A stretch of 58,666 nucleotides of DNA, from positions 1-58,666 of the forward strand of contig NIVC01004131.1 in NCBI GenBank assembly GCA_002269645.1, in the 5' to 3' direction. Below the pieces are notes generated by a model. That model was not told the DNA's origin. It ran no database searches and saw only the letters and a list, made by a program, of their open reading frames with translations. Source of the DNA: Macrostomum lignano (Eukaryota). A program made the position numbers and the translations under genes. This document shows, in pieces, positions 1 to 50,649 of the stretch (the first letter of the stretch is position 1; every line of letters begins with the position of its first letter).

Positions 1-3000
1 AGAGGAGAGGAGAGGAGAGAGGAGAGGAGAGGGAGAGTAGAGGAGAGGAGAGGAGAGAGAGAGGAGAGGGAGAGAGGAGAGGAGAGGAGAGGAGAGAGGA
101 GAGGAGAGGAGAGGAGAGGAGAGGATAGAGGAGAGAGGAGAGAAGAGGGGAGGAGAGGAGAGGAGAGGAGAGGAGAGGAGAGGAGAGGAGAGGGAGGAGA
201 GAGAGAGGAGAGGGAGTGTGGAGATGAGAGAAGAGGAGAGGAGAGGAGAGGAGAGGAGAGAGGAGAGGAGAGGAGAGAGAGAGGAGAGGAGAGGAGAGAG
301 GAGAGGATAGAGGAGAGGAGAGAAGAGGAGAGGAGAGAGAGAGAGTAGAGGAGAGAGGAGAGTAGAGGAGAGGAGAGGAGAGGAGAGGAGAGAGAGAGAG
401 GAGAGGAGAGGAGAGGAGAGGAGAGAGAGTAGAGGAGAGGAGAGGAGAGGAGAGGAGAGGAGAGGAGAGGAGAGGAGAGAGGAGAGTAGAGGAGAGGAGA
501 GGAGAGAGGAGAGGAGAGGAGAGAGGAGAGGAGAGGAGAGGAGAGGAGAGGAGAGGAGAGGAGAGGAGAGGGGAGGAAAGAGAGAGGAGAGGAGAGTGGA
601 GATGAGAGAAGAGGAGAGGAGAGGAGAGGAGAGGGAGAGAGGAGAGGAGAGGAGAGGAGAGAGGAGAGGAGAGGAGAGAGGAGAGGATAGAGGAGAGGAG
701 AGAAGAGGAGAGGAGAGGAGAGGAGAGGAGAGAGGAGAGTAGAGGAGAGGAGAGGAGAGGAGAGGAGAGAGGAGAGAGGAGAGGAGAGGAGAGAAAGAGG
801 AGAGGAGAGGATAGAGGAGAGGAGAGAAGAGGAGAGGAGAGGAGAGGATAGAGGAGAGGAGAGAAGAGGAGAGGAGAGGAGAGGAGAGGAGAGGAGAGGA
901 GAGGATAGAGGAGAGGAGAGAAGAGGAGAGGAGAGGAGAGGAGAGGAGAGGAGAGGGGAGGAGAGAGAGAGGAGAGGAGAGGAGAGGAGAGAAGAGGAGA
1001 GGAGAGAAGAGGAGAGGAGAGGAGAGGAGAGGAGAGGAGAGGAGAGGAGAGGAGAGAAGAGGAGAGGAGAGGAGAGGAAAGGAGAGGAGAGGAGAGGAGA
1101 GAAAGAGGAGAGGAGAGTGGAGATGAGAGGAGAGGAGAGGAGAGGAGAGAGGAGAGGAGAGGAGAGGGGAGGAGAGGAGAGAGAGAGGAGAGTGGAGATG
1201 AGAGGAGAGGAGAGGAGAGAGGAGAGGAGAGGAGAGGAGAGGAGAGGAGAGGAGAGGATAGAGGAGAGGAGAGAAGAGGAGAGGAGAGGAGAGGAGAGGA
1301 GAGGAGAGAAAGAGGAGAGGAGAGTGGAGATGAGAGGAGAGGAGAGAGGAGAGTAGAGGAGAGGAGAGGAGAGAGGAGAGGAGAGGAGAGGAGAGGGGAG
1401 GAGAGGAGAGAGAGAGGAGAGTGGAGATGAGAGGAGAGGAGAGGAGAGAGAGGAGAGGAGAGGAGAGGAGAGGAGAGGAGAGGAGAGGAGAGGATAGAGG
1501 AGAGGAGAGAAGAGGAGAGGAGAGGAGAGGAGAGGAGAGGAGAGAAAGAGGAGAGGAGAGTGGAGATGAGAGGAGAGGAGAGAGGAGAGTAGAGGAGAGG
1601 AGAGGAGAGAGGAGAGGAGAGGAGAGGGGAGGGGAGGAGAGGAGAGAGAGAGGAGAGTGGAGATGAGAGGAGAGGAGAGGAGAGAGGAGAGGAGAGGAGA
1701 GGAGAGAGGAGAGGATAGAGGAGAGGAGAGGAGAGGAGAGAAGAGGAGAGGAGAGGAGAGGAAAGGAGAGGAGAGGAAGGAGAGAAAGAGGAGAGGAGAG
1801 TGGAGATGAGAGGAGAGGAGAGGAGAGGAGAGAGGAGAGGAGAGGAGAGGGGAGGAGAGGAGAGAGAGAGGAGAGTGGAGATGAGAGGAGAGGAGAGGAG
1901 AGGAGAGAGGAGAGGAGAGGAGAGGAGAGGAGAGGAGAGGATAGAGGAGAGGAGAGAAGAGGAGAGGAGAGGAGAGGAGAGGAGAGGAGAGAAAGAGGAG
2001 AGGAGAGTGGAGATGAGAGGAGAGGAGAGAGGAGAGTAGAGGAGAGGAGAGGAGAGAGGAGAGGAGAGGAGAGAAGAGGGGAGGAGAGGAGAGAGAGAGG
2101 AGAGTGGAGATGAGAGGAGAGGAGAGGAGAGGAGAGGAGAGAAAGAGGAGAGGAGAGTGGAGATGAGAGGAGAGGAGAGAGGAGAGTAGAGGAGAGGAGA
2201 GGAGAGAGGAGAGGAGAGAGGAGGAGAGGGGAGGAGAGGAGAGAGAGAGGAGAGTGGAGATGAGAGGAGAGGAGAGGAGAGAGGAGAGAGAGGAGAGGAG
2301 AGAGGAGAGGATAGAGGAGAGGAGAGAAGAGGAGAGGAGAGGAGAGGAGAGGAGAGGAGAGAGGAGAGTAGAGGAGAGGAGAGGAGAGGAGAGGAGAGGG
2401 GAGAGAGGAGGGAGAGGAGAGGAGAGAGGAGAGGAGAGGAGAGGAGAGGAGAGGATAGAGGAGAGGAGAGAAGAGGAGAGGAGAGGAGAGGAGAGGAGAG
2501 GAGAGGAGAGGAGAGGAGAGGGGAGGAGGAGAGAGAGGAGAGGAGAGTGGAGATGAGAGAAGAGGAGAGGAGAGGAGAGGAGAGGAGAGAGAGAGGAGAG
2601 AGAGGAGAGGAGGAGAGGAGAGGAGAGAGAGAGAGGATAGAGGAGAGGAGAGAAGAGGAGAGGAGAGGAGAGAGAGGAGAGAGGAGAGTAGGGAGAGAGG
2701 AGAGGAGAGGAGAGGAGAGAGGAGAGAGGAGAGGAGAGGAGAGGAGAGAGGAGAGTAGAGGAGAGGAGAGGAGAGGAGAGGAGAGGAGAGGAGAGGAGAG
2801 GAGAGAGGAGAGTAGAGGAGAGGAGAGGAGAGAGGAGAGGAGAGGAGAGAGGAGAGGAGAGGGAGAGGAGAGGAGAGGAGAGGAGAGGAGGAGAGGAGAG
2901 AGAGGAGAGAGAGAGGAGAGGAGAGGAGAGGAGAGGAGAGGAGAGGAGAGGAGAGGAGAGGAGAGGAGAGGAGAGGAGAGGAGAGGAGAGGAGAGAGGAG

Positions 3001-4650: not shown

Positions 4651-5285
4651 AATCTCTAGAAATTCGACTTTTTATCAATTTGATGGCTTCATCAGGGGCG
4701 TCGCCACCGGGGGGAGGGGCAGGGGGACATGTCCCCCCCCCCCGAGTAAAAGCTATGGGGGACATGCTTTATCCCTATAAAACAAACCGATAATTGATTT
4801 TGACTGGCGATAAAGAAAACAAGGTCGCAACCCAGAATCCAGCTTTTATATTTTCTAGCCTAAACATGGGTGGAAAAGGTGGGGGGGGGGTTGGCAGAGA
4901 GATATATTCTGAGTACATTTTGCGTACAGTGAAAATAGAGAAAATAACTTTGGATGAAACAGGCGGCTAGTCTAGGCCAACTCATTTTTTGACACTCCCC
5001 CCAGATGATTTATCATTTGATTTTCAATTCGAAAAAGCGTTCCGAACATACATACATACATTACAACGTAATTACACTACGTTCGAACTTGTTGCAAACA
5101 ATGAAAAATGAAAAAACTATTTTAGCCTAACGGAGAGAGAGGTGGTTCGTTGCTTTAAGTGAGACAGTCAGCGGAGAACAAATAACCGATAGAGCCAAGT
5201 TTAAGCGCGTGAGCATGATCGATGAAGGGAAAATTTAAATGGAAGAATGACGAATAATGACACGTAACATCGCCCATAACCAAGA

Positions 5286-5642
5286 ACAACAACAACAACA
5301 ACAGAGTCTGCTGTCAGTTCGCAAAAGCAGCGTCAGATGGCGCGCTTCGAAGCTTGGGCGCGAACAAAGGCCGCACCGCCGGCAGAGTCCGGGGCGCCGG
5401 CGTCAGCCAGCAGACAGTCGACGTAGCGCCGAGTCCTCGCCTGTCCCCGCCGGTAGGGTGCCTGCAACGTAAGTAGCAGCACCTCCTGCACCGGCTCCGG
5501 ACAGTAGGCCTCGGCGCGGATGACGTGGCCTGCCAGCTGGAGTCGCCGACGGCGCAGCAGATCGCTAGGACGGGCCAGGCCGGCGCGATGATAGAGCGCC
5601 GTGTTGGTCACTCGCTCGTTGCCGATCTTGAAGGCGGCGCGC
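5286..5642 (-). mobile_element. 5'-truncated RTE-like non-LTR retrotransposon with (TTG)n tail
   Basis: RVTNTALYHRAGLARPSDLLRRRRLQLAGHVIR...RRGQARTRRYVD matches the C-terminus of RTE-type ORF2 proteins. The 3' tail reads (CAA)n on +. ACCAAGA direct repeat at 5279-5285 and 5643-5649 is a candidate TSD. Confidence 0.75.
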
Positions 5643-5760
5643 ACCAAGAGAATTATCTCAAAGCAGAAAAACAAACCTTTCCCATTACAAATTTTGGCGA
5701 GAGGCTGTCAAAAAAGTTAACAAACGAATTCGAAAGTCATGGGAAAGGTAAAAAACGGAC

Positions 5761-7295
5761 TTAGGATTGAAGCTCTAAAGGAATCAACGACTGGACTGGC
5801 CGCCTCACCCGTTCCCAGCGCCGGGAACTCCCAGCACCCGCAACGCGAAGAAGAACCGAACGGATCGCACCATCACGGCCAGGATGCACTTCCTCGACAA
5901 TACCCAATTTCCACTTGAGTTTTGGTTGTCGAGCTTCACCTGCCGGAAGAACCACTTCACCAACATTTGGCGGGCGGCGGTTAGGTTGATCCTTTAGGGC
6001 TTTCTCGCGCTGAGACTCCAAGTAGGACGTCTTTCATTGGTTACAAAACCAATCCAGAGCTGCTCTAAGCATTGTAAGCCGTTTCGAAAGCGGTAGAACG
6101 GAGTCCGCCTCACTGAGACGACTAGCTGCAATGAAATGGGACGGTGTGATGACCTTCAACCGTCGCCTGAATCCGAAGGTTACATACAACAGCGACCGAC
6201 AGTTTACCACAGCTTCGACTTCCACAGTTAGAGTGATCAACTGGTCGTAGGTAAACAGCTGTCGACCTGCAGCCTTTTTAGTGCCATCTTCACGATGCCA
6301 ATCAGCCTTTCCCAGTAACCTCCCCACCAAAAAGCTCCCTCGGGCACAAAATGCCAACAAATCTTCTTCGACGAACAGAACGACTGCAGCTCTTCTGAGA
6401 TACTAGCGCCGATCCGTTTGGCGCCTGACCGAAATGTCCGTGCATTGTCACTGACGATGGAGGGAATGCCCCTTCGAGCCACGGACCGACGCAGTGCATG
6501 CAGAAGTTGTTCGCTGTCCATCCTTGAAACAACTTCCAGATGAGAAACAACTTCGAGTTGCTGAGCAAGTGAAGAGCAGGATGTACGCCTTTTTGCTCTC
6601 ACCACCCTCCGCCGTCCGATAGAATATCGGAGCAGCATAATCCAGTCCTATTGTACGAAAAGCACGAACAGTTGACAAACGGAAGGATGGAAGCTGCGGA
6701 ACCGCACACACGGAAAACGGTCGACCTTGAAACTTCTTGCACACAACACACCCCGCCAATAACTGCTTCACACACTGTCTCGCCTTTAAAACCCAAAAAT
6801 GTTCACGAAGCTTGCATATTGTTGCCGCCACCCGGAATGCATCACAGCCACATGGTAATGACGGACAAGCAAGGTTTCGAGCGGGTGCTTTGAGGGAATC
6901 AGCACCGGATCGTTGGTGTCGAAGGGCACAGCGCCCTGCAGACGACCCGCTGACCGAACTAATCCAGTAGGATCAAGGAACAATTTGAGATCGTGCACTA
7001 ACGGCGTGCGAGGTCCAGAACCGCTGAGGCACGAAATTTCGTTCGACAATGATTTACACTCATTGTCGCAGGATGAGTGTCGCACTCATTCGCACGGCTC
7101 GCAGCACTGACTGTCCTGCCTGTAATATTTCCGTAGCCGTTAACAAGGATGGTTATTTAACAATCCGATGGCGCAAGATGCTGACAAATCTCAAGACCCA
7201 ACCAACCACTCGAGTGAGCTTGGTCCACAATGAAAATTCTGAAATCTGAATCACTTTGAGCAGAGAAGGTGAAGAAGAATCGGTACACTCCACTG
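5761..7295 (-). mobile_element. Bel/Pao LTR retrotransposon pol 3' half (integrase and C-terminal DUF5641-like region), frameshifted
   Basis: Motifs in order: FSLWTKLTRVVGWVLRFV; LFLDPTGLVRSAGRLQ; HYHVAVMHSG...FWVLKARQCVKQLLAGCVVCKK (H2C2); IGLDYAAP; LFTCSATR; RRGIPSIVSDNARTF; WWGGYWERLIGIVK; KWKLGIVEEVHPGRDGAIRSV...RRPVQSLIPLE. Several frameshifts. Confidence 0.92.
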
Positions 7296-7717
7296 TGGTT
7301 TCAATGTAGCGTCATCAGGAGCATTTGAAACGTCAGATAATTGGGGTTATATAGTATCTAATTCAGAATGGGCATCGAGGAATGAACCCAATTCTTACAT
7401 TGAAGTAAAACTTCCCGAGTCTATTCAAATTTGGAAATTCGGATTGAAAGGAACCAAAGCAGTAGGTAGTGAAATTATAAAAAATCAACCAAAAAGTTTT
7501 ATTCTAAAAGGTAGCAATAACAAGAGAGACTTTAGGAATATTTTTTTCTGCCGAAAACGCTGGTTTAGTTTCTGGAGTGATGAAGTACTTCGAAGTAGCT
7601 TCCACCGAAAAATTCTCCGTTTATAGAGTGCATATTAATTCAGCCACTGAAGGATCAACGGTTCTTATTGTTTCAGGCTTTCAACTTTATCCGATTTTAG
7701 ACATAATTGCCACATAA
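7291..7717 (+). pseudogene. Discoidin/F5-8 type C-like (galactose-binding fold) ORF remnant, Polinton-associated
   Basis: GFNVASSG...SEWASRNEPNSYIEVKLPESIQIWKFGLKG...QPKSFILKGSNN; after a 1-nt shift in a T-run it continues ...KFSVYRVHINSATEGSTVLIVSGFQLY*. The pattern (W-A-S, YIEVKL, FILKGSN, YRVHI, FQLY) fits this fold. 5' end truncated. Confidence 0.5.
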
Positions 7718-7719
7718 AA

Positions 7720-8479
7720 ATGAATGATGAAAGTGAACACGTCTATCCTGTGGTTGAGCTGCATGAAGCAGATTCGAGGGAACGGGACTATTTCAATCAG
7801 AGAAAGGGTGAAATCAAAGGCAGTATTGAATGCATTACTAAAGATCTTACAATTTATAGCAAAAAGGTAAACAAGTACAAACGACAAAGTAGCAGGATAA
7901 ATTGGATCAACATTGTGACAGGAAATGTAAGTCTCTTGGCTGCTACAGGAATTGGCATAGCGACATCGATACTGACATTGAATCCCTTAGTCATTGGAGT
8001 AGTAATCGGGGCAATGAGTGGTTTTGAAGCTGTAAAATCCATGTCATTGTTTGCAGCTGTGAAAATGCATTGCCAAAAGCAGAAGGCAAAATACATTGTT
8101 CTCAGAGATCTGGCAAATCAATACAGAGAGAGATTGTATATATACTCCCAAAAAGCAGTTGATGATTACAGAATAACTCTTGAAGAGGTTCAAGCAGCTA
8201 CTGCCATTTATTCAGAATAGAGAGAAAAGAGACAAATTGTTAGATACTTCTCTTGTGCCTCAAGGTAATAAGCAAGGGGGAAAACTAGTTAACCATTCGG
8301 AAGTCGTTGATAAAATCCTCAAAGAGAGTAGACTTGGTCATTCAGCGAAGGAAAAAATTAAAAAGGAATTGCTGGAGAAAGATCTGAGAGAAAAATTGGG
8401 TCTAGCTGATAAGCCAAAAGAGTACTCGGCAACACTCAATCTTCAATCAGATGCTCCATGTGCACCTCCCTACAATTAA
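7720..8479 (+). pseudogene. Polinton/adintovirus-type two-TM membrane protein, split into two ORFs (7720..8220 and 8180..8479)
   Basis: YPVVEL N-terminus, KKVNKYKR before a hydrophobic hairpin (NVSLLAATGIGIATSILTLNPLVIGVVIGAMSG), SQKAVDDYRITLEEV and C-terminal APCAPPY. This resembles the small membrane ORF common beside Polinton polB genes. Confidence 0.55.
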
Positions 8480-8503
8480 TATTGTATAATGTTTTTCTTA
8501 AAA

Positions 8504-9805
8504 ATGGAATGGAAAATACCAGCGGCCTCTTATGAGTTTGATCTCGACTCCGTTGAAGAAATTCACGGTTTAATCTCCCTGCAATTCTTTCCAAACATTT
8601 GATGGCTAGAGATTCAATAAAATACAGAATTTCCTTTGTTGCAGAATTTTATAAAGGAACTACCGACAAGTGGATTGAGTTCCAATATCATTCAAAGTAT
8701 CGAATTTTGTTAAATCTTTTCCAAGTGAAAACTAGTATAGAAACTACAATTCAGGATGTTCTGGATGAATTCGATGAATGGAAGGATAGTTTTAATGAAA
8801 GGGGATCGGGATATCATTTTGTTAAGTTAGTAAAGATTGTGTTGAAAGTTGTTGGCAATAATCAGTTGAAGGGAGGAACTTATATTAGAATTCCAATTGA
8901 ATCAAACGTATTAGTAAATGTTTAGAATACTAAAGACAATAGGTGCTTTCTCTGGTCTATTTTAGCCAAGCTCCATCCTGTGAAGGAACATAGATATAGA
9001 GTTGGTAAGTATACACAGTATATAAATGAAATAAACTTAGGAGACGTTGAATTTCCAGTGGACATTTGAGATATCTCTGAGATTTAAAAGTTGAACAGCC
9101 TCCATATAAATGTGTTTGGATTGAGAGATATAAATACTAAAGAGTCAATATATTCTATTCGTCTGACATAAGATTATGACAACCCCGATGTTATTGATTT
9201 ACTACCTGTTAAAAATCATTATTGTTTAATAACAGACCTAAACTTATTCCTCACGTTTAACAATAGGGTTTTTCTTTGTAGAAAATGCCTTCAGGTTAAA
9301 TACTCCGAGGATGCACTGGATAATCATAAAGCGCTTTGTGTCGACTTCAATGTGTCAATTGAAGTTCCAAAGATTGATAAGAGGATGTTAAAGTTTAAGA
9401 ACTACCACATGAGTGTAAGAAAGCCATTTGTGTTTTATGCAATATTGGATTATGTATCGATAGATAATAAATCCATAGAGCTATCAAACTAGACACTTTG
9501 TATTAGTTCCGACTATGAAAATATTATAAAATCAGATATTATTTCAAATACTACAGTGGAATCATTCGTTGAAGCCGTAATCAAAAAGTTTGAGCATATA
9601 AGAAATGAAATGGATAGATATAAACATGCAAGATTAAGTGATGACGAAGAGACTGATTACAAAGCGGCAGAACAATGTTTTCTCTGCTCAAGGCCATTTG
9701 TAGATAGTAAAAAATTTCGAGAGCATAATCACTACAATGGTAAATATCGCGGCGCAGCATGCCAATCATGTAATACCAAGGAGGGCAAGGCGAATCAAAC
9801 AGTAC
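8504..9805 (+). pseudogene. N-terminal part of a Polinton/Maverick (adintovirus) protein-primed type-B DNA polymerase with endonuclease VII-like zinc motif
   Basis: FNERGSGYHF...LKGGTYIRIP...VNV*NTKDNRCFLWSILAKLHP...NLGDVEFPV...INVFG...HYCLI...FLCRKCL...FKNYHMSVRKPFVFYA...CFLC...FREHNHYNGKYRGAACQSCN. Multiple stops and frameshifts; the catalytic palm is absent. Confidence 0.85.
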
Positions 9806-9829
9806 CGAATCAAACAGTATTCAATGGTC

Positions 9830-10493
9830 GGAAACTCCATTTTTCAAATTTTCCGAATAATGCGAAGCTTTGCAATAGGTGCAATAGGAACATTTTGTTC
9901 GTGGCGTCAGGTGCTGGCGTCAAGAAATCGTAAGTTCTTGACTTTGATTTCTTTCTTTCCGTAGCGCTCTCGCAAAATATGAGATAGTTGAAATTGTCTA
10001 CCGGTATATCTGACAGGCTCGAGTTGCGATGTATGGAAGAGTCAAACTGATCCCAAAACGACTGCCACGCCGAAATCTCCCCCGTGAATGTCGGAATTCG
10101 CCTCTTGGGAAGCTTGATCTGCGACCCGGACTCTACGGAACGACTTTTAGTCGCTATTGCCTCCTCCGGCGATTGTTGACTATTGAATATTGAAAGCTGC
10201 TTCCAGCATCTTAATGCAGCTGATACACTTCATCGAATAAGCTTGATTCTCTTCCACTTCAGCATCCAGCCCCTATCAGCGATAGACTCCTCTATGGCTT
10301 CATCCAATGCTTGCACTGCTGTCAACTTCGACTTCAGAATCTGCACAATTGCCTCCACATCCGCACGATTTGCAGCTCGACCAATATCCACGGAGAGAAG
10401 ATTGTCAGCCTTTCCAAACAGCCTTTGTGATCGCCGCGCCGATACCTGCACGCTTCCTGACTGCTGAAGATAGCTCTTTTCACTGAGAACCAT
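9830..10493 (-). mobile_element. Bel/Pao gag fragment (DUF1759-like region and zinc-knuckle remnant)
   Basis: QIKLPKRRIPTFTGEISAWQSFWDQFDSSIHRNSSLSD...FNYL is the Bel/Pao gag signature; KCSYCTYCKASHYSE follows after an apparent internal deletion. Confidence 0.8.
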
Positions 10494-11007
10494 GACGACT
10501 TGAATTGGGAGACGCTTCTAAAGCCAAGAACTCCCGACACTGAGAACTTGAAGACGGTCAGCCCAAAAAAAGAAGCAGACTGCAGGAGAACGCTACAAGT
10601 GAACACGAGAAAAATGAATGGAAAAAGCAAAAAATACGAGTAAATTTGGTAAAAGAAAACTCTAAAATTTTAGTATATGACCCCACCTTGTGATCCGTTG
10701 TGGAAATCAATAATTTCAGGGCGCTAAACCATAGCACCTGTGGCGCCAAAATGAGTGCCTGTGGCGCTAAAATGAGTGTCTGTGGCGCTAAAATGAGTGC
10801 ATGAGGCGCTAAAATGAGTGAGTGCTAACAAAACAGATTCTCAAAGTAATGCAATGCTTTGTCCCCCACCATAAAATCCATGGCGACGCCCGTGAGCTTC
10901 ATTGTCTATGGTCAAATGCTCTACTATGCAGTGGCAGGAGGTTTAATCATCATCTCGACTGCCGAAAGCAAATGTTACCGTCATGCTATCCAATTTGATT
11001 CTCCAAG

Positions 11008-11272: not shown

Positions 11273-12124
11273 GTGAGTATTACATAGTTTGTTTTTACTC
11301 GATCGATTAATCAATTTTTTCAGTACCTTGAAATGTACTCGGTGTTCTCCTCCACTGGCCTGTTTGTCCGATTCCTTTCAAGGAAATGAATAGAATCAAG
11401 GCGATCAGAAACTGATACGAAGATCCCAGCCAAAATAAACTGTTGGTGGATACTTTCGGAAGATAGATAGCGGCGCAACGGCGTGAGAGAGGCGCGCGTT
11501 CACTAATTGTCAAGCCTCTTTCGCCGCATCTCTCAAACACAGGCCCCGAGTTTCGCTTATCCCAGTCTCCTACTCTCGTCTTCTTCTTTTGCCTTGCCGT
11601 CACGGGGGGGACGGACGGAAGCAATCGAGCTCAAACGCGGAGAGCATTCAAACGAGCCCCTTAGTAAACTCGGCGCCGCTCTGTGCAGGCGGAATTCGGG
11701 TTTCGCTTCGACCGGCGAGTGAGAGAGTGCCGGTTCGAAAGGAAGTGGAGGCGGTTTTCGGACTCCAAAAACTTTCAAACTGCTCTCTTTGCCAGCCTCC
11801 TGGAAGGTTTCGAGGCTCTCGGAGGCCGGAGTAAGCAGCGTTGTTGGGCGGAAACGAAGCACCGCCTGACTGGTCAATGAGGCGCAGCGTTAACGCATGA
11901 TTAGCGAGCCAGGCAAATCAGCCTCCTTCAACTCGTTTCAGTCACTTTGCTTTCTCCGCTCTGCTTCAAATCTAATTGACCATTGCTTTCAGTTGCTTTG
12001 GTGCAAGTCTGCTTTTCCAGGTAGAGAAAAGTGCGAAATCAGTTTTTTAATGCGGAAAGAGCTCGTATTTAAAGCATCAAAAAGAGTCTTGAATACATAT
12101 AGCTAACAGCTTAAGCATGGATTG

Positions 12125-14376
12125 CAGCTCGTTGAAGAGCCTCAAGGACACGGGTAGCAGCTCATGGAAGAGCCTCAAGGACACGGGTAGCAGCTCATGG
12201 AAGAGCCTCAAGGACACTGGTAGCAGCTCATGGAAGTGCCTCAAGGACACGGGTAGCAGCTCATGGAAGAGCCTCAAGGACACGGGTAGCAGCTCATGGA
12301 AGAGCCTCAAGGACACGGGTAGCAGCTCATGGAAGAGCCTCAAGGACACGGGTAGCACATCATGGAAGAGCCTCAAGGAAACGGGTAGCAGCTCATGGAA
12401 GAGCCTCAAGGACACAGGTAGCACATCATGGAATAGCCTCAAGGACACTGGTAGCAGCTCATGGAAGAGCCTCAAGGACATGGGTAGCAGCTCATGGCAA
12501 AGCCTCAAGGACATGGGTAGCAGCTCATGGAAGAGCCTCAAGGACACGGGTAGCAGCTCATGGAAGAGCCTCAAGGACACGGGTAGCAGCTCATGGAAGA
12601 GCCTCAAGGACACAGGTAGCACATCATGGAAGAACCTCAAGGACACGGGTAGCAACTCATGGAAGAACCTCAAGGACACGGGTAGAAGCTCATGGCAAAG
12701 CCTCAAGGACATGGGTAGCAGCTCATGGAAGAGCCTCAAGGACACTGGTAGCAGCTCATGGAAGAGCCTCAAGGACACGGGTAGCAGCTCATGGAAGAGC
12801 CTCAAGGACACAGGTAGCACATCATGGAAGAACCTCAAGGACACGGGTAGCAACTCATAGAAGAGCCTCAAGGACACCGGTAGCAGCTCATGGCAAAGCC
12901 TCAAGGACACGGGTAGCAGCTCATGGCAAAGCCTCAAGGACACGGGTAGCAGCTCATGGCAAAGCCTCAAGGACACGGGTAGCAGCTCATGGCAAAGCCT
13001 CAAGGACACGGGTAGCAGCTCATGGAAGAGCCTCAAGGACACGGGTAGCAGCTCATGGAAGAGCCTCAAGGACACGGGTAGCAGCTCATGGAAGAGCCTC
13101 AAGGACACAGGTAGCACATCATGGAAGAACCTCAAGGACACGGGTAGCAACTCATGGAAGAGCCTCAAGGACACGGGTAGAAGCTCATGGCAAAGCCTCA
13201 AGGACACGGGTAGCAGCTCATGGCAAAGCCTCAAGGACACGGGTAGCACATCATGGAAGAGCCTCAAGGACACAGGTAGCACATCATGGAAGAACCTCAA
13301 GGACACGGGTAGCAGCTCATGGAAGAGCCTCAAGGACACCGGTAGCAGCTCATGGCAAAGCCTCAAGGACACGGGTAGCAGCTCATGGCAAAGCCTCAAG
13401 GACACGGGTAGCAGCTCATGGAAGAGCCTCAAGGACATGGGTAGCAGCTCATGGAAGAGCCTCAAGGACACGGGTAGCAGCTCATGGAAGAGCCTCAAGG
13501 ACACGGGTAGCACATCATGGAAGAACCTCAAGGACACGGGTAGCAACTCATGGAAGAACCTCAAGGACACGGGTAGAAGCTCATGGCAAAGCCTCAAAGA
13601 CACGGGTAGCAGCTCATGGAAGAGCCTCAAGGACACGGGTAGCAGCTCATGGCAAAGCCTCAAGGACACGGGTAGCACATCATGGAAGAGCCTCAAGGAC
13701 ACGGGTAGCAGCTCATGGAAGAGCCTCAAGGACACAGGTAGCACATCATGGAAGAGCCTCAAGGACACGGGTAGCAACTCATGGCAAAGCCTCAAGGACA
13801 CAGGTAGCACATCATGGAAGAACCTCAAGGACACGGGTAGCAGCTCATAGAAGAGCCTCAAGGACACCGGTAGCAGCTCATGGCAAAGCCTCAAGGACAC
13901 GGGTAGCAGCTCATGGCAAAGCCTCAAGGACACGGGTAGCAACTCATGGAAGAGCCTCAAGGACACGGGTAGCAGCTCATGGAAGAGCCTCAAGGACACG
14001 GGTAGCAGCTCATGGAAGAGCCTCAAGGACACAGGTAGCACATCATGGAAGAGCCTCAAGGACACGGGTAGCAGCTCATGGAAGAGCCTCAAGGACACAG
14101 GTAGCACATCATGGAAGAGCCTCAAGGACACAGGTAGCACATCATGGAAGAGCCTCAAGGACACGGGTAGCAGCTCATGGAAGAGCCTCAAGGACACGGG
14201 TAGCAGCTCATGGAAGAGCCTCAAGGACACGGGTAGCAGCTCATGGAAGAGCCTCAAGGACACGGGTAGCAGCTCATGGAAGAGCCTCAAGGACACGGGT
14301 AGCAGCTCATGGAAGAGCCTCAAGGACACGGGTAGCAACTCATGGAAGAGCCTCAAGGACACGGGTAGAAGCTCGT
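12125..14376. repeat. 33-bp minisatellite (GAAGAGCCTCAAGGACACGGGTAGCAGCTCATG)n, about 68 copies
   Basis: Tandem 33-bp period; same family occurs inverted at 47213..48000. Confidence 0.97.
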
Positions 14377-15104
14377 CTCGTGAACTTCTAGGAAATCCCA
14401 ACTTTGGCGCCTTCACAAATCAATGCAATAGAAAGAGAGAGAGGGGGGAGGCCGACTTCCTTCCCGAGTCCTGTTCCAGCCAACAGAGATATGCAAGATG
14501 GGAGTCGGGCGTGAAAGCAATTCAGTATGAAGACTGAAAGGACAGGACTGGCCCTCCCCCGAGAGGTGCCCTTAGCCTCAGAGCTGGCCGAAAAAAACGG
14601 TTGCGATTTTGTGACGGCTTCGATTTTCCGATAAAATTCATATTTCGCCTTTGGTCTCTCGCAGCCTCTCTCTCTCTATCGCACAAACTTTATTTGCGGT
14701 CTCTTTGACAAAAGCCGCTGAGCTAACTAAGCGCACGAGGTTTGGTGGGCTTGGAACCACTCGACTTTCTCTCTATGCCTCTCGTCCTCTCTATTTCTTA
14801 GCTCGTACTAGTTTTGAACAAGAGGCTGGGTTGGGTGGTCCGGAAGGCAGAAGTGCCCGAGCTGTCCGGGCGTACGTCTTCGCATGATGAACTTGTGCGA
14901 TGTGGCGACTGGCGGGACGTCAGCCAGAAATTAAAGGCTTTGATTTGTCTGCACTTTGAAGAGCCCGGAACAGCCCCCACACAGCCGACTGCTGTATGGG
15001 GCGGCGGGGCTGTCTCTGCTGATTTTCGGGACTGTTTATTCATTAGAATGCATCATTTAGTAAGCTCGGTCTCGGTGGGTCATGGTAGATAGATCACTTG
15101 GAGA

Positions 15105-47090: not shown

Positions 47091-47171
<81 letters not shown>

Positions 47172-47998
47172 GATTTATGAAGGCGTAAAAGTCGGAATTT
47201 ACTAAAAGTTCACGAGGCGAGCTGCTACCCGTGTCCTTGAGGCTCTTCCATGAGCTGCTACCCGTGTCCTTGAGGCTTTGCCATGAGCTGCTACCCGTGT
47301 CCTTGAGGCTTTGCCATGAGCTGCTACCCGTGTCCTTGAGGCTTTGTCATGAGCTGCTACCCGTGTCCTTGAGGCTCTTCCATGAGCCACTACCTGTGTC
47401 CTTGAGGCTCTTCCATGAGCCACTACCCATGTCCTTGAGGCTCTTCCATGAGCTGCTACCCGTGTCCTTGAGGCTTTGCCATGAGCTGCTACCCGTGTCC
47501 TTGAGGCTTTGTCATGAGCTACTACCCGTGTCCTTGAGGCTTTGTCGTGAGCTACTACCCGTGTCCTTGAGGCTTTGCCATGAGCTGCTACCCGTGTCCT
47601 TGAGGCTTTGTCATGAGCTACTACCTGTGTCCTTGAGGCTTTGCCATGAGCTGCTACCCGTGTCCTTGAGGCTTTGTCATGAGCTACTACCCGTGTCCTT
47701 GAGGCTTTGTCGTGAGCTACTACCCGTGTCCTTGAGGCTTTGTCATGAGCTACTACCCGTGTCCTTGAGGCTTTGTCATGAGCTGCTACCCGTGTCCTTG
47801 AGGCTCTTCCATGAGCCACTACCTGTGTCCTTGAGGCTCTTCCATGAGCCACTACCCGTGTCCTTGAGGCTCTTCCATGAGCTGCTACCCGTGTCCTTGA
47901 GGCTCTTCCATGAGCTGCTACCCGTGTCCTTGAGGCTCTTCCATGAGCTACTACCCGTGTCCTTGAGGCTTTGCTATGAGCTGCTACCCGTGTCCTTG

Positions 47999-48096
<98 letters not shown>

Positions 48097-48483: not shown

Positions 48484-48798
48484 GCGAGTAGCCTCAAGGA
48501 AGCGAACAGCCAAGGCGTAGTCGTTGACACGCCGGCAGGCTTTGAGTGCGGCAGTGACAAGCTCAGGCTCGGGGACCAGATCCTCAGAGTACAGATCCTG
48601 CATAGCTTTGCGAATCACCCAGCCGTCTGATTGGGGATTGTTAAACATAGCCAAGTATTTGGCGTCAAACTCAGCCGGGGACAGTTTTGGCGCGTCGCTC
48701 AGCTGCCTGCTGACAACGCTGACGGCCGGCAGCGATGGCCTGGCAACTGAAACGCCTAATCTGAGCAGCTTGGCTGAGCTAGCGATTGCGCGGAACAT
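48484..48798 (-). CDS. COX5A: Cytochrome c oxidase subunit 5A, exon 1
   Basis: Mitochondrial presequence, then EFDAKY...DGWVIRKAMQDL...DLVPEPELVTAALKACRRVNDYALAVRFLEA; GTGAGT donor. Confidence 0.95.
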
Positions 48799-48867
48799 GG
48801 TGTAGGCTAGAGCATGAAATTGTGAATAAAAGCACTGATAGTGGTTGCAAATTATACATATAGCCCA

Positions 48868-50510
48868 TAGATCAAGCTGTGCCAGTGGATCAAGCTGTGC
48901 CTGTGGATCAAGCTGTGCCAGTGGATAAAGCTGTGCCTATAGATCAAGCTGTGCCTATAGATCAGGCTGTGCCTATATATCAAGCTGTGCCTATAGATCA
49001 GGCTGTGCCTACAGATCAAGCTGTGCCTACAGATCAAGCTGTGCCTGTGGATCAAGCTGTGCCAGTGGAAAAAGCTGTGCCAGTGGAAAAAGCTGTGCCT
49101 ATAGATCAAGCTGTGCCTATAGATCAGGCTGTGACTATATATCAAGCTGTGCCTATAGATCAGGCTGTGCGAGTGGATCAGGCTGTGCCTATAGATCAAG
49201 CTGTGCCTGTAGATCAAGCTGTGCCTGTGGATCGAGCTGTGCGTATAGATCAAGCTGTGCCTATAGATCAAGCTGTGCCTGTAGATCAAGCTGTGCCTGT
49301 GGATCAAGCTGTGCGTATAGATCAAGCTGTGCCTATAGATCAGGCTGTGCCTATATATCAAGCTGTGCCAGTGGATCAGACTGTGCCTATAGATCAAGCT
49401 GTGCCTGTAGATCAAGCTGTGCCTGTGGATCAAGCTGTGCGTATAGATCAAGCTGTGCCTATAGATCAAGCTGTGCCTGTAGATCAAGCTGTGCCTGTGG
49501 ATCAAGCTGTGCGTATAGATCAAGCTGTGCCTATAGATCAGGCTGTGCCTATATATCAAGCTGTGCCTATAGATCAGGCTGTGCCAGTGGATCAGGCTGT
49601 GCCTATAGATCAAGCTGTGCCTGTAGATCAAGCTGTGCCTGTGGATCGAGCTGTGCGTATAGATCAAGCTGTGCCTATAGATCAAGCTGTGCCTGTAGAT
49701 CAAGCTGTGCCTGTGGATCAAGCTGTGCGTATAGATCAAGCTGTGCCTATAGATCAGGCTGTGCCTATATATCAAGCTGTGCCAGTGGATCAGACTGTGC
49801 CTATAGATCAAGCTGTGCCTGTAGATCAAGCTGTGCCTGTGGATCAAGCTGTGCGTATAGATCAAGCTGTGCCTATAGATCAAGCTGTGCCTGTAGATCA
49901 AGCTGTGCCTGTGGATCAAGCTGTGCGTATAGATCAAGCTGTGCCTATAGATCAGGCTGTGCCTATATATCAAGCTGTGCCTATAGATCAGGCTGTGCCA
50001 GTGGATCAGGCTGTGCCTATAGATCAAGCTGTGCCTGTAGATCAAGCTGTGCCTGTGGATCGAGCTGTGCGTATAGATCAAGCTGTGCCTATAGATCAAG
50101 CTGTGCCTGTAGATCAAGCTGTGCCTGTGGATCAAGCTGTGCGTATAGATCAAGCTGTGCCTATAGATCAGGCTGTGCCTATATATCAAGCTGTGCCTAT
50201 AGATCAGGCTGTGCCAGTGGATCAGACTGTGCCTATAGATCAAGCTGTGCCTGTAGATCAAGCTGTGCCTGTGGATCAAGCTGTGCGTATAGATCAAGCT
50301 GTGTCTATAGATCAAGCTGTGCCTGTAGATCAAGCTGTGCCTGTGGATCAGGCTGTGCCTATATATCAAGCTGTGCCTATAGATCAGGCTGTGCCAGTGG
50401 ATCAGGCTGTGCCTATAGATCAAGCTGTGCCTGTAGATCAAGCTGTGCCTGTGGATCAAGCTGTGCGTATAGATCAAGCTGTGCCTATGGATCAAACTGT
50501 GCCTATGAAT
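48868..50510. repeat. 18-bp minisatellite (AGATCAAGCTGTGCCTAT)n with 414-bp higher-order repeat
   Basis: The rare variant ATCGAG recurs at 49231, 49645 and 50059 (spacing 414 = 23 units). Confidence 0.96.
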
Positions 50511-50649
50511 CAAACTACAACTGCAGATCAAGTTTGTCTAGATACAGGATTTGAACAAGGTGGTATTGAATGAATTAGCAAGGTGATAATATAGTATGGA
50601 ATATTGAGGTAACATCCTGGACCTGGCATGCATAAATTTTTGTACGCAT

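Follow-up and report, generated by a model that had tools for sequence, protein, structure and literature searches.

Bel/Pao elements with foreign sequence

Bel/Pao retrotransposons have been found with viral sequence before. In Bursaphelenchus xylophilus, eBxnv-1 is a viral polymerase sequence (a nodavirus RdRp) in a single degenerate Bel/Pao element that, like the one described here, is without part of its own coding region; in eBxnv-1 only, however, the available part of the report describes an intact RNA virus ORF that lies between two identical LTRs and is transcribed (PMC5177903). Foreign viral sequence is also associated with Bel/Pao in the Anakin Pao elements, which carry a chuvirus glycoprotein (PMC7642597), and in LTR-associated EVEs of Aedes (10.1101/127498). 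As far as the accessible text of these two papers goes, these are captures from RNA viruses, mostly in the same polarity, that have been amplified by retrotransposition or feed piRNAs. In the 58,666-nt stretch of Macrostomum lignano DNA analysed here (contig NIVC01004131.1, hereafter the window), by contrast, there is one locus without amplification, where the foreign sequence comes from a resident DNA element and is antisense, drawn from three genes and decayed, the 5' LTR having been lost. Neither two LTRs with copies at unrelated sites nor an intact ORF in element polarity, as in mobile hybrids of the Anakin or eBxnv-1 type, was found.

Three further systems are comparable in part. Nesting also links retroelements with Polinton-type viruses in PLVs and virophages, but in the reverse arrangement, with a whole retrotransposon inside the virus in the cases available to us (PMC12220804). 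Short filler from beside the joint, with little or no homology, is common to polymerase theta deletions (PMC4032859) and repair-mediated duplications (PMC2671141), but the former are mostly 50-200 bp (in the worm) and the latter lose 1-15 nt at capture sites in the portions of these papers that we could consult, versus kilobases in the window. Finally, the donor has the integrase, capsid, packaging ATPase, PolB-type polymerase and terminal inverted repeats described for Polintons and adintoviruses (PMC8502044), whereas the window has 18% of one such element, without the ends, integrase, capsid or polymerase active site. Our search, whose reach ended short of subscription papers and preprint supplements, turned up no report of an LTR element with a Polinton fragment in it.

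The locus is a single dead Bel/Pao insertion with an internal Polinton fragment. By appearance it is ordinary genome debris that DNA-break repair at a single place likely left behind, not a hybrid that works and has spread, and it cautions that viral DNA flanked by gag and integrase does not have to mean capture by a retroelement. It is also a well-resolved fossil that preserves, base by base, the donor family, the repair scars and a probable order of events.

Layout of the locus

Two Bel/Pao halves (5642-7296 and 9820-10680) surround a 2,511-bp segment (7297-9807) in the opposite orientation, which is an internal part of a multi-copy 14-kb Polinton. The features are, in window coordinates:

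4693..4775, plus strand: MITE left part, high-copy, with the terminal inverted repeat start; target of the Bel/Pao insertion, its final 5 bases being the candidate target-site duplicate
4776..4994, minus strand: Bel/Pao 3' LTR, about 219 bp, canonical outer end
4995-5003: polypurine tract, immediately inside the 3' LTR
5286..5642, minus strand: 357-bp later insert with a (CAA)n tail and a 7-bp target duplication
5761..7296, minus strand: Bel/Pao tether, H2C2 zinc finger, integrase core and DUF5641, with stops and frameshifts throughout
7294..7299, no strand: left joint (7296/7297)
7297..7717, plus strand: Polinton gene for a F5/8-type C domain protein, 3' end (aa 337-475)
7720..8479, plus strand: Polinton gene for a small two-TM protein, 2 stops, one frameshift
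8483..9807, plus strand: Polinton pPolB frame, N-terminal 46%, with endonuclease VII domain; catalytic half absent; 5 stops
9808..9819, plus strand: right joint, 12-nt templated copy of 9793-9804
9820..9915, minus strand: Bel/Pao remnant, gag end just upstream of the zinc knuckles
9916..9930, no strand: 15-nt filler at the gag deletion of about 390 bp
9931..10493, minus strand: Bel/Pao gag 5' part, DUF1759, with a 79-bp deletion at 9980/9981
10494..10680, minus strand: Bel/Pao 5' leader remnant
10681..10895, plus strand: MITE right part, 21-bp minisatellite and terminal inverted repeat

The insert at 5286..5642, which we take to be a LINE-like 3' end (it has no Pfam match), is missing from one of the other copies of the locus, C2422.

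The Bel/Pao host

The first-pass annotation had seen minus-strand gag and integrase regions as collinear, and this is borne out by Pfam domains (gag DUF1759, E 3.4e-7; Integrase_H2C2, rve and DUF5641 on the integrase side) and by near-complete sister copies, with which both pieces align at 90-91%. In the window, DUF1759 and DUF5641 score above the Pfam cut-off, and rve and H2C2, which lie in broken frames, below it; the order, gag DUF1759 followed by rve and DUF5641, is that of Bel/Pao. The stretch that is absent, about 2.8 kb, comprises the gag knuckles, the protease region (a frame without Pfam match, located by position), RT and RNase H; an RT and Peptidase_A17 (RNase H region) core is found in the sister copy C4826, and tblastn gave no match to it in the window. 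Loss is not confined to the core: the gag side has the two further deletions listed above, and the rest of the leader, the primer site and the 5' LTR (~620 bp) are gone, whereas sister loci keep LTRs and primer site within 5-bp target-site duplications. The window element is a relic of its family rather than a mobile member, cannot retrotranspose and encodes nothing functional.

That gag and integrase might belong to different Bel/Pao families would have undermined the original observation, but the two halves stand at equal distance from one and the same family (p-distance to C415 5.75% and 5.69%). They derive from one insertion, because a single MITE flanks the pair, one half of it on each side: free MITE copies pass directly from the left part into 10681+, and the right part takes up, to within a few bases, at the point the left part has reached.

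The Polinton donor

The plus-strand ORFs standing where protease, RT and RNase H belong had been called Polinton-like, correctly: 7297-9807 matches a Polinton at 92-93% at eight free loci. The segment covers the 3' end of the F5/8-domain gene, the two-TM gene (with a weak SLATT_1 match, E 0.021, below cut-off) and residues 2-444 of a 954-aa pPolB frame. One donor copy (C944) measures 13,962 bp end to end, with 314-bp terminal inverted repeats beginning AGT and a 6-bp target duplication, all of which are absent from the window segment. Another (C716) has Pfam matches to an rve integrase (E 3.7e-10), a double jelly-roll capsid (3.4e-11) and an A32 packaging ATPase (7.7e-6). The polymerase half found no match in Pfam, PHROGs, PDB or phage searches; PF03175 is carried by 10 of the 120 relatives listed (43-51% identical), which is indirect evidence of a protein-primed family B polymerase. 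An adenain protease, putative by its motifs, and an OTU domain, features that bear on the Alpha/Beta adintovirus class, have no Pfam or PHROGs match in the donor.

The family is abundant (41 matches, with 40 of 77 candidates scored), and 4 of 17 copies break within 1.5 kb to the right of the segment. We rejected the idea of a small autonomous or non-autonomous element with ends of its own, because free loci extend beyond the segment into common Polinton sequence, rightward in 18 of the 18 examined and leftward in all eight that have the whole segment.

Four copies of one locus

Both joints are present on four contigs only, up to 2% diverged, each with a single LTR match; all are without the 5' LTR and primer site. 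The further chimeric copies, especially with LTRs, that the first-pass annotation had proposed to look for did not materialise: neither dispersed copies at unrelated sites nor a segment between two LTRs was found. The four go back to a single event, the locus being duplicated, and not to transposition, because they have flanks of >30 kb in common and are collinear with the window for >20 kb rightward and up to 10 kb leftward. Flanks in common far outside the MITE ends also dispose of transposed hybrids and of a MITE-bounded unit that moves. C2422 has lost a further 135 and 1,230 bp inside the Polinton segment. The locus illustrates how fast nested elements erode in M. lignano.

It is very improbable that the arrangement is an assembly artefact or two unrelated Bel/Pao fragments around a Polinton scrap. 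The region is repeat-rich, and none of the 32 of 7,220 contig pieces listed bridges the Polinton joints by 31 letters; against this, the four contigs have their own substitutions and later rearrangements and each carries both joints, run contigs drawn from three studies span either the gag-deletion joint specific to this locus or the joint between Bel/Pao and MITE, and the MITE halves abut.

Joints and repair scars

Comparison with sister and donor copies placed both joints, with microhomology of at most 3 nt. At the left, GGT terminates both parents and C2422 has it twice, in keeping with either a blunt join or a 3-nt duplication. At the right, the 14-bp direct repeat that had been taken to mark the junction does so: the window contains CGAATCAAACAGTA at 9791 and 9806 and nowhere else, and the repeat arises from the 12-nt templated filler. 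In 35.4 kb of natural Bel/Pao and Polinton copies, only one exact repeat of at least 12 bp within 25 bp was seen, so chance does not explain why the window's repeat falls on the joint; C2013, among the four copies, has the sequence a single time. The repeat is no target-site duplication, as both copies are Polinton-derived and on one side. The same kind of scar marks an ordinary gag deletion 100 bp away, whose 15-nt filler is made up of 8 nt copied directly from the left flank and 8 nt copied in inverted form from the right. The right-joint filler matches templated insertions described for polymerase theta (PMC4032859, in the part available); the pathway was probably error-prone end-joining of that type.

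A proposed nested Polinton, later trimmed

The proposal of 'template switching or repair-mediated capture' is supported in part: 'repair-mediated' fits the joint scars, and template switching is a minority view. DNA-level routes taken together are probable. Among them we favour, at slightly less than an even chance, a route missing from the first-pass annotation, which fits at least as well. The Bel/Pao element would have inserted into the MITE, and a whole Polinton would then have jumped into its pol region; two deletions, each taking one Polinton arm and adjoining Bel/Pao sequence, would have followed, their ends sealed probably by error-prone end-joining. Nested inserts are routine (the two near-complete sister loci have them, of 1.35 and 1.17 kb, and the window copy the 357-bp one), and so are multi-kb losses (sister cores, C2422, Polinton breaks). 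Counting against it, a full-length intermediate with a Polinton end, which would have been lost, is absent from the four copies and from C3564, C215 and C1148. The deletions required, at least 6.9 and at least 4.6 kb, exceed any measured here, left no arm remnant and are older than the C2422 split. C3564, with two LTR matches 14.6 kb apart, had been considered as the intermediate, and the pol-only fragments C215 and C1148 as a reciprocal exchange product; four Polinton stretches used as queries matched none of the three.

Possible, if rather less likely, is a patch in one step. After integration, breakage or a gap would have cost the Bel/Pao element 2.8 kb, and Polinton DNA, either copied from a chromosomal locus or acquired in free linear form, would have been end-joined into the space on both sides. 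Such a patch predicts one contiguous internal segment without a Polinton end, as seen, and agrees with the right-joint filler, the GGT common to both parents, the abundance of the donor family and the near-equal ages of the parts. However, homology at the joints never exceeds 3 nt, and published repair captures, from vertebrates only in the text at hand, lose 1-15 nt at the acceptor versus 2.8 kb here (PMC2671141). The joints themselves suit both the patch and the trimmed nested Polinton. That the replacement is of similar size, as first remarked, is true (2,784-2,798 Bel/Pao bases gone, 2,523 foreign bases in their place) but means little, since plain core deletions of 3.1 and 4.2 kb removed RT/RNase H, with no Polinton and nothing inserted, in two of four other loci keeping both LTRs. 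C1852 and C4923, which have one deletion in common, are counted as one locus; a comparison of their flanks gave no match because the contig ends at the LTR.

Age, decay and possible capture at the RNA level

The Polinton segment is decaying near-neutrally, without selection (pN 0.024, 47/1950; pS 0.039, 20/510; p=0.07), with the five pPolB stops common to copies. Dating was tried for event order and gave no significant difference: pN is 0.029 for Bel/Pao versus 0.024 (p=0.44), old changes 0.019 versus 0.010 (p=0.10), and the old:young ratio is alike (p=0.76), comparisons biased by few Bel/Pao references and differing base composition. 'Bel/Pao first' is thus the point estimate only, the ages of the parts being indistinguishable.

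Such ages would also suit an unlikely scenario in which RT, switching template twice, took in an antisense Polinton RNA and made chimeric cDNA that then integrated, perhaps through one end only. The 5' loss ends a few bases from the target site, as one-ended integration would have it, and Bel/Pao elements are described as having captured viral RNA (PMC5177903; PMC7642597). The gag-side breakpoints of three independent core deletions also lie within ~175 bp (C4826 positions 6057, 6148 and ~6230; post-hoc P 0.026), but the cluster has no stable hairpin (z 0.11), and each core-deleted derivative tested is one locus, so none shows spread. Moreover, the segment lies antisense across three genes and their spacers, whereas captured viral sequence mostly follows retroelement polarity in the part of the Aedes work available (10.1101/127498). 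With the 5' LTR absent, no dispersed copy, the antisense course and near-neutral decay, the idea of an LTR retroelement as the capture vehicle finds no support. That Bel/Pao RT copied an antisense three-gene Polinton transcript, and that the locus yields antisense small RNAs against the abundant Polinton family, is quite improbable. An LTR-bounded or dispersed form, or such small RNAs, if found, would widen retroelement capture, as described for RNA viruses, to DNA viruses of the Polinton type. Among the matches listed, no RNA runs contain sequence of the locus; one run guessed to be RNA has a low-depth, uninformative contig (run contigs are unstranded) over the gag joint.

Layout of the chimera

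Minus-strand frames at 5761-7296 and 9813-10517 matched DUF5641, rve, Integrase_H2C2 and DUF1759 in a domain search, while Endonuclease_7 was the sole above-cut-off match for the plus-strand frames lying between these Bel/Pao parts. The arrangement proposed in the first-pass annotation, a minus-strand Bel/Pao gag and integrase flanking plus-strand Polinton ORFs, is thus borne out. So is its 14-bp direct repeat at the right junction, this 14-mer occurring twice in the whole window, at 9791 and 9806.

The Bel/Pao host

Searches of G000 (the 764-Mb animal genome assembly in which the window is contig C4131), together with fetched loci, revealed a small Bel/Pao family in which damage differs from locus to locus. 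Two loci (C415, and C4826 with the contigs sharing its flanks) retain both LTRs and the primer site, are flanked by 5-bp target duplications and still have a frame with RT and Peptidase_A17. Both have a nested insert within gag: in C415 (L057), one of 1.35 kb that carries terminal inverted repeats as well as TA ends and is presumably Tc1/mariner-like, and in the C4826 group a different one of 1.17 kb. Compared with these loci, the window copy retains, on the minus strand:

4776-4994: 3' LTR
up to 7296: Bel/Pao integrase side
9820-9915: 96-bp Bel/Pao remnant
up to 10680: gag and part of the leader

Against the same references, 2,784-2,798 bp of Bel/Pao are missing between the two Polinton joints, gag has two further gaps (about 390 and 79 bp), and about 620 bp including the primer site and 5' LTR are gone. 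The two halves are equally distant from C415 (5.75% and 5.69% divergence) and from C4826 (6.1% and 6.3%), which counts against the possibility that they come from different Bel/Pao families. They are also bordered by a single split MITE, one half lying before the LTR on the left and the other beyond 10680 on the right. This MITE is uninterrupted in free copies, shows the joint motif in 6/8 of those fetched, and has lost just a few bases here, in a C-rich tract. A single Bel/Pao has therefore inserted once at this site.

The Polinton donor

In G000, scoring 40 of the 77 candidates gave 41 matches to the 2,511-bp piece. It is whole in eight free loci at 92-93%, with Polinton sequence extending beyond it on both sides. 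The donor family encodes an integrase, a double jelly-roll capsid, an A32 ATPase, a primase-helicase and a 954-aa frame (PF03175 on 10 of the 120 relatives listed). One copy (C944) is 13,962 bp long, with 314-bp terminal repeats beginning AGT and a 6-bp target duplication. The window piece, 6.9 kb and 4.6 kb from the Polinton ends, comprises an F5/8 gene tail, a gene for a two-TM protein and, from pPolB (protein-primed family B polymerase), the front part, which is non-catalytic.

Copies, age and selection

Exact patterns for each joint gave four finds, all on the same four contigs (control patterns, 0), which have the MITE and flanks in common. C2013 and C2422 are collinear with the window as far as 32,674 in the stretches fetched, and C2663 to its contig end; leftward, agreement among the three reaches as much as 10 kb. 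Each chimeric contig has one LTR match. C2422 is 2.1% diverged and lacks the window copy's 357-bp insert, yet has both joints, which are therefore older than its split. Public-run contigs bridge two of the other joints: X1 and X4 cover the one at the gag deletion, and X4 also the one between Bel/Pao and MITE. Among the pieces listed (32 of 7,220) none bridged the Polinton joints. An assembly artefact is extremely improbable.

C2663 (L063) has its own later 685-bp tandem duplication (window 6042-6727), and C2013 (L062) its own later insert of ~238 bp near 8578. Most repeat loci in G000 are represented by 2-5 contigs with common flanks (four for the chimeric locus, three for the C1381 group, four for the C2163 group, also the C4826 group). 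The assembly contains several haplotypes or duplicated chromosomes, and copy counts are consequently inflated. The chimera is one-off nested-element debris at a duplicated locus, real and cleanly resolved.

A change was counted when two or more chimeric copies had it and none of the references did (seven Bel/Pao loci; 12 of 18 fetched free Polinton loci). The Polinton piece, whose pPolB part has five stops, gave pN 47/1950 and pS 20/510 (p=0.07), and the Bel/Pao parts pN 39/1365 and pS 23/447. Bel/Pao and Polinton parts did not differ significantly in pN (p=0.44) or in changes shared with C2422 (21/1107 versus 9/907, p=0.10). The Polinton piece is under no conservation, and its arrival and the Bel/Pao insertion are indistinguishable in age.

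Joints and origin

At the right joint, Polinton sequence to 9807 is followed by 12 nt recopied from 9793-9804 and then by Bel/Pao, with no homology. This duplicate is kept in 3/4 chimeric copies, the earliest-branching C2422 included, and the single unit in C2013 is best read as a later collapse. At the left joint, GGT ends both parents and is doubled in C2422. A plain gag deletion (9915/9931) contains a 15-nt patchwork filler, built from two flank copies, one direct and the other inverted. These fillers resemble the templated ones described in PMC4032859 as a mark of polymerase theta end-joining.

Loss of a Bel/Pao core is nothing special, since in the C1381 group a deletion across a 7-bp microhomology took out 3.1 kb, and in C1852 4.2 kb went missing, with no foreign DNA in either case. 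Our tentative preference is that a Polinton inserted into the Bel/Pao and would later have been trimmed from both sides by deletion. This calls on common processes alone, because nested inserts and kilobase deletions are common in the Bel/Pao and Polinton loci examined. The two deletions required would be larger than any measured here, and no full-Polinton intermediate was found among the four chimeric copies and three further loci. A one-step repair patch filling a Bel/Pao gap with Polinton DNA would account for the single clean piece, but is rather unlikely, the acceptor loss being unusually large beside the cases in PMC2671141. More doubtful still is RT template switching onto Polinton RNA: the equal ages of the parts, three clustered gag-side breakpoints (post-hoc P 0.026) and a 5' loss stopping nearly at the target site would fit, but the piece is antisense and spans three genes (cf. 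10.1101/127498), the chimera has not spread, and no hairpin was found for the breakpoint cluster.

Viral sequence within Bel/Pao elements (PMC5177903; PMC7642597) and retroelements nested in Polinton-like viruses (PMC12220804) are already known. The Bel/Pao-virus hybrids have two LTRs, an intact sense ORF, and spread or expression, whereas the present chimera has neither two LTRs nor an intact sense ORF, nor has it spread. Our literature search found no report of a Polinton fragment in a Bel/Pao element.

Other observations

Polinton copies can be grouped by common edges (14 match from 7697 on only, 16 only up to about 8507), and in C67 the F5/8 gene is inverted and located at the far end, which looks like modular subfamilies. 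In C716 (L069:7734-9222), the first Polinton is immediately followed by a further rve integrase and by an Adeno_PX gene, suggesting an adjoining second element, and at L068:292-1563 a phospholipase A2-like domain opens the Polinton integrase frame (E 8e-4, below cut-off). Large tandem arrays, of purine-only, 33-bp (also inverted, 33 kb away) and 18-bp types, lie at window 1-3000, 12077-14537, 47150-48005 and 48750-50570, and the long ORFs within them are repeat artefacts.
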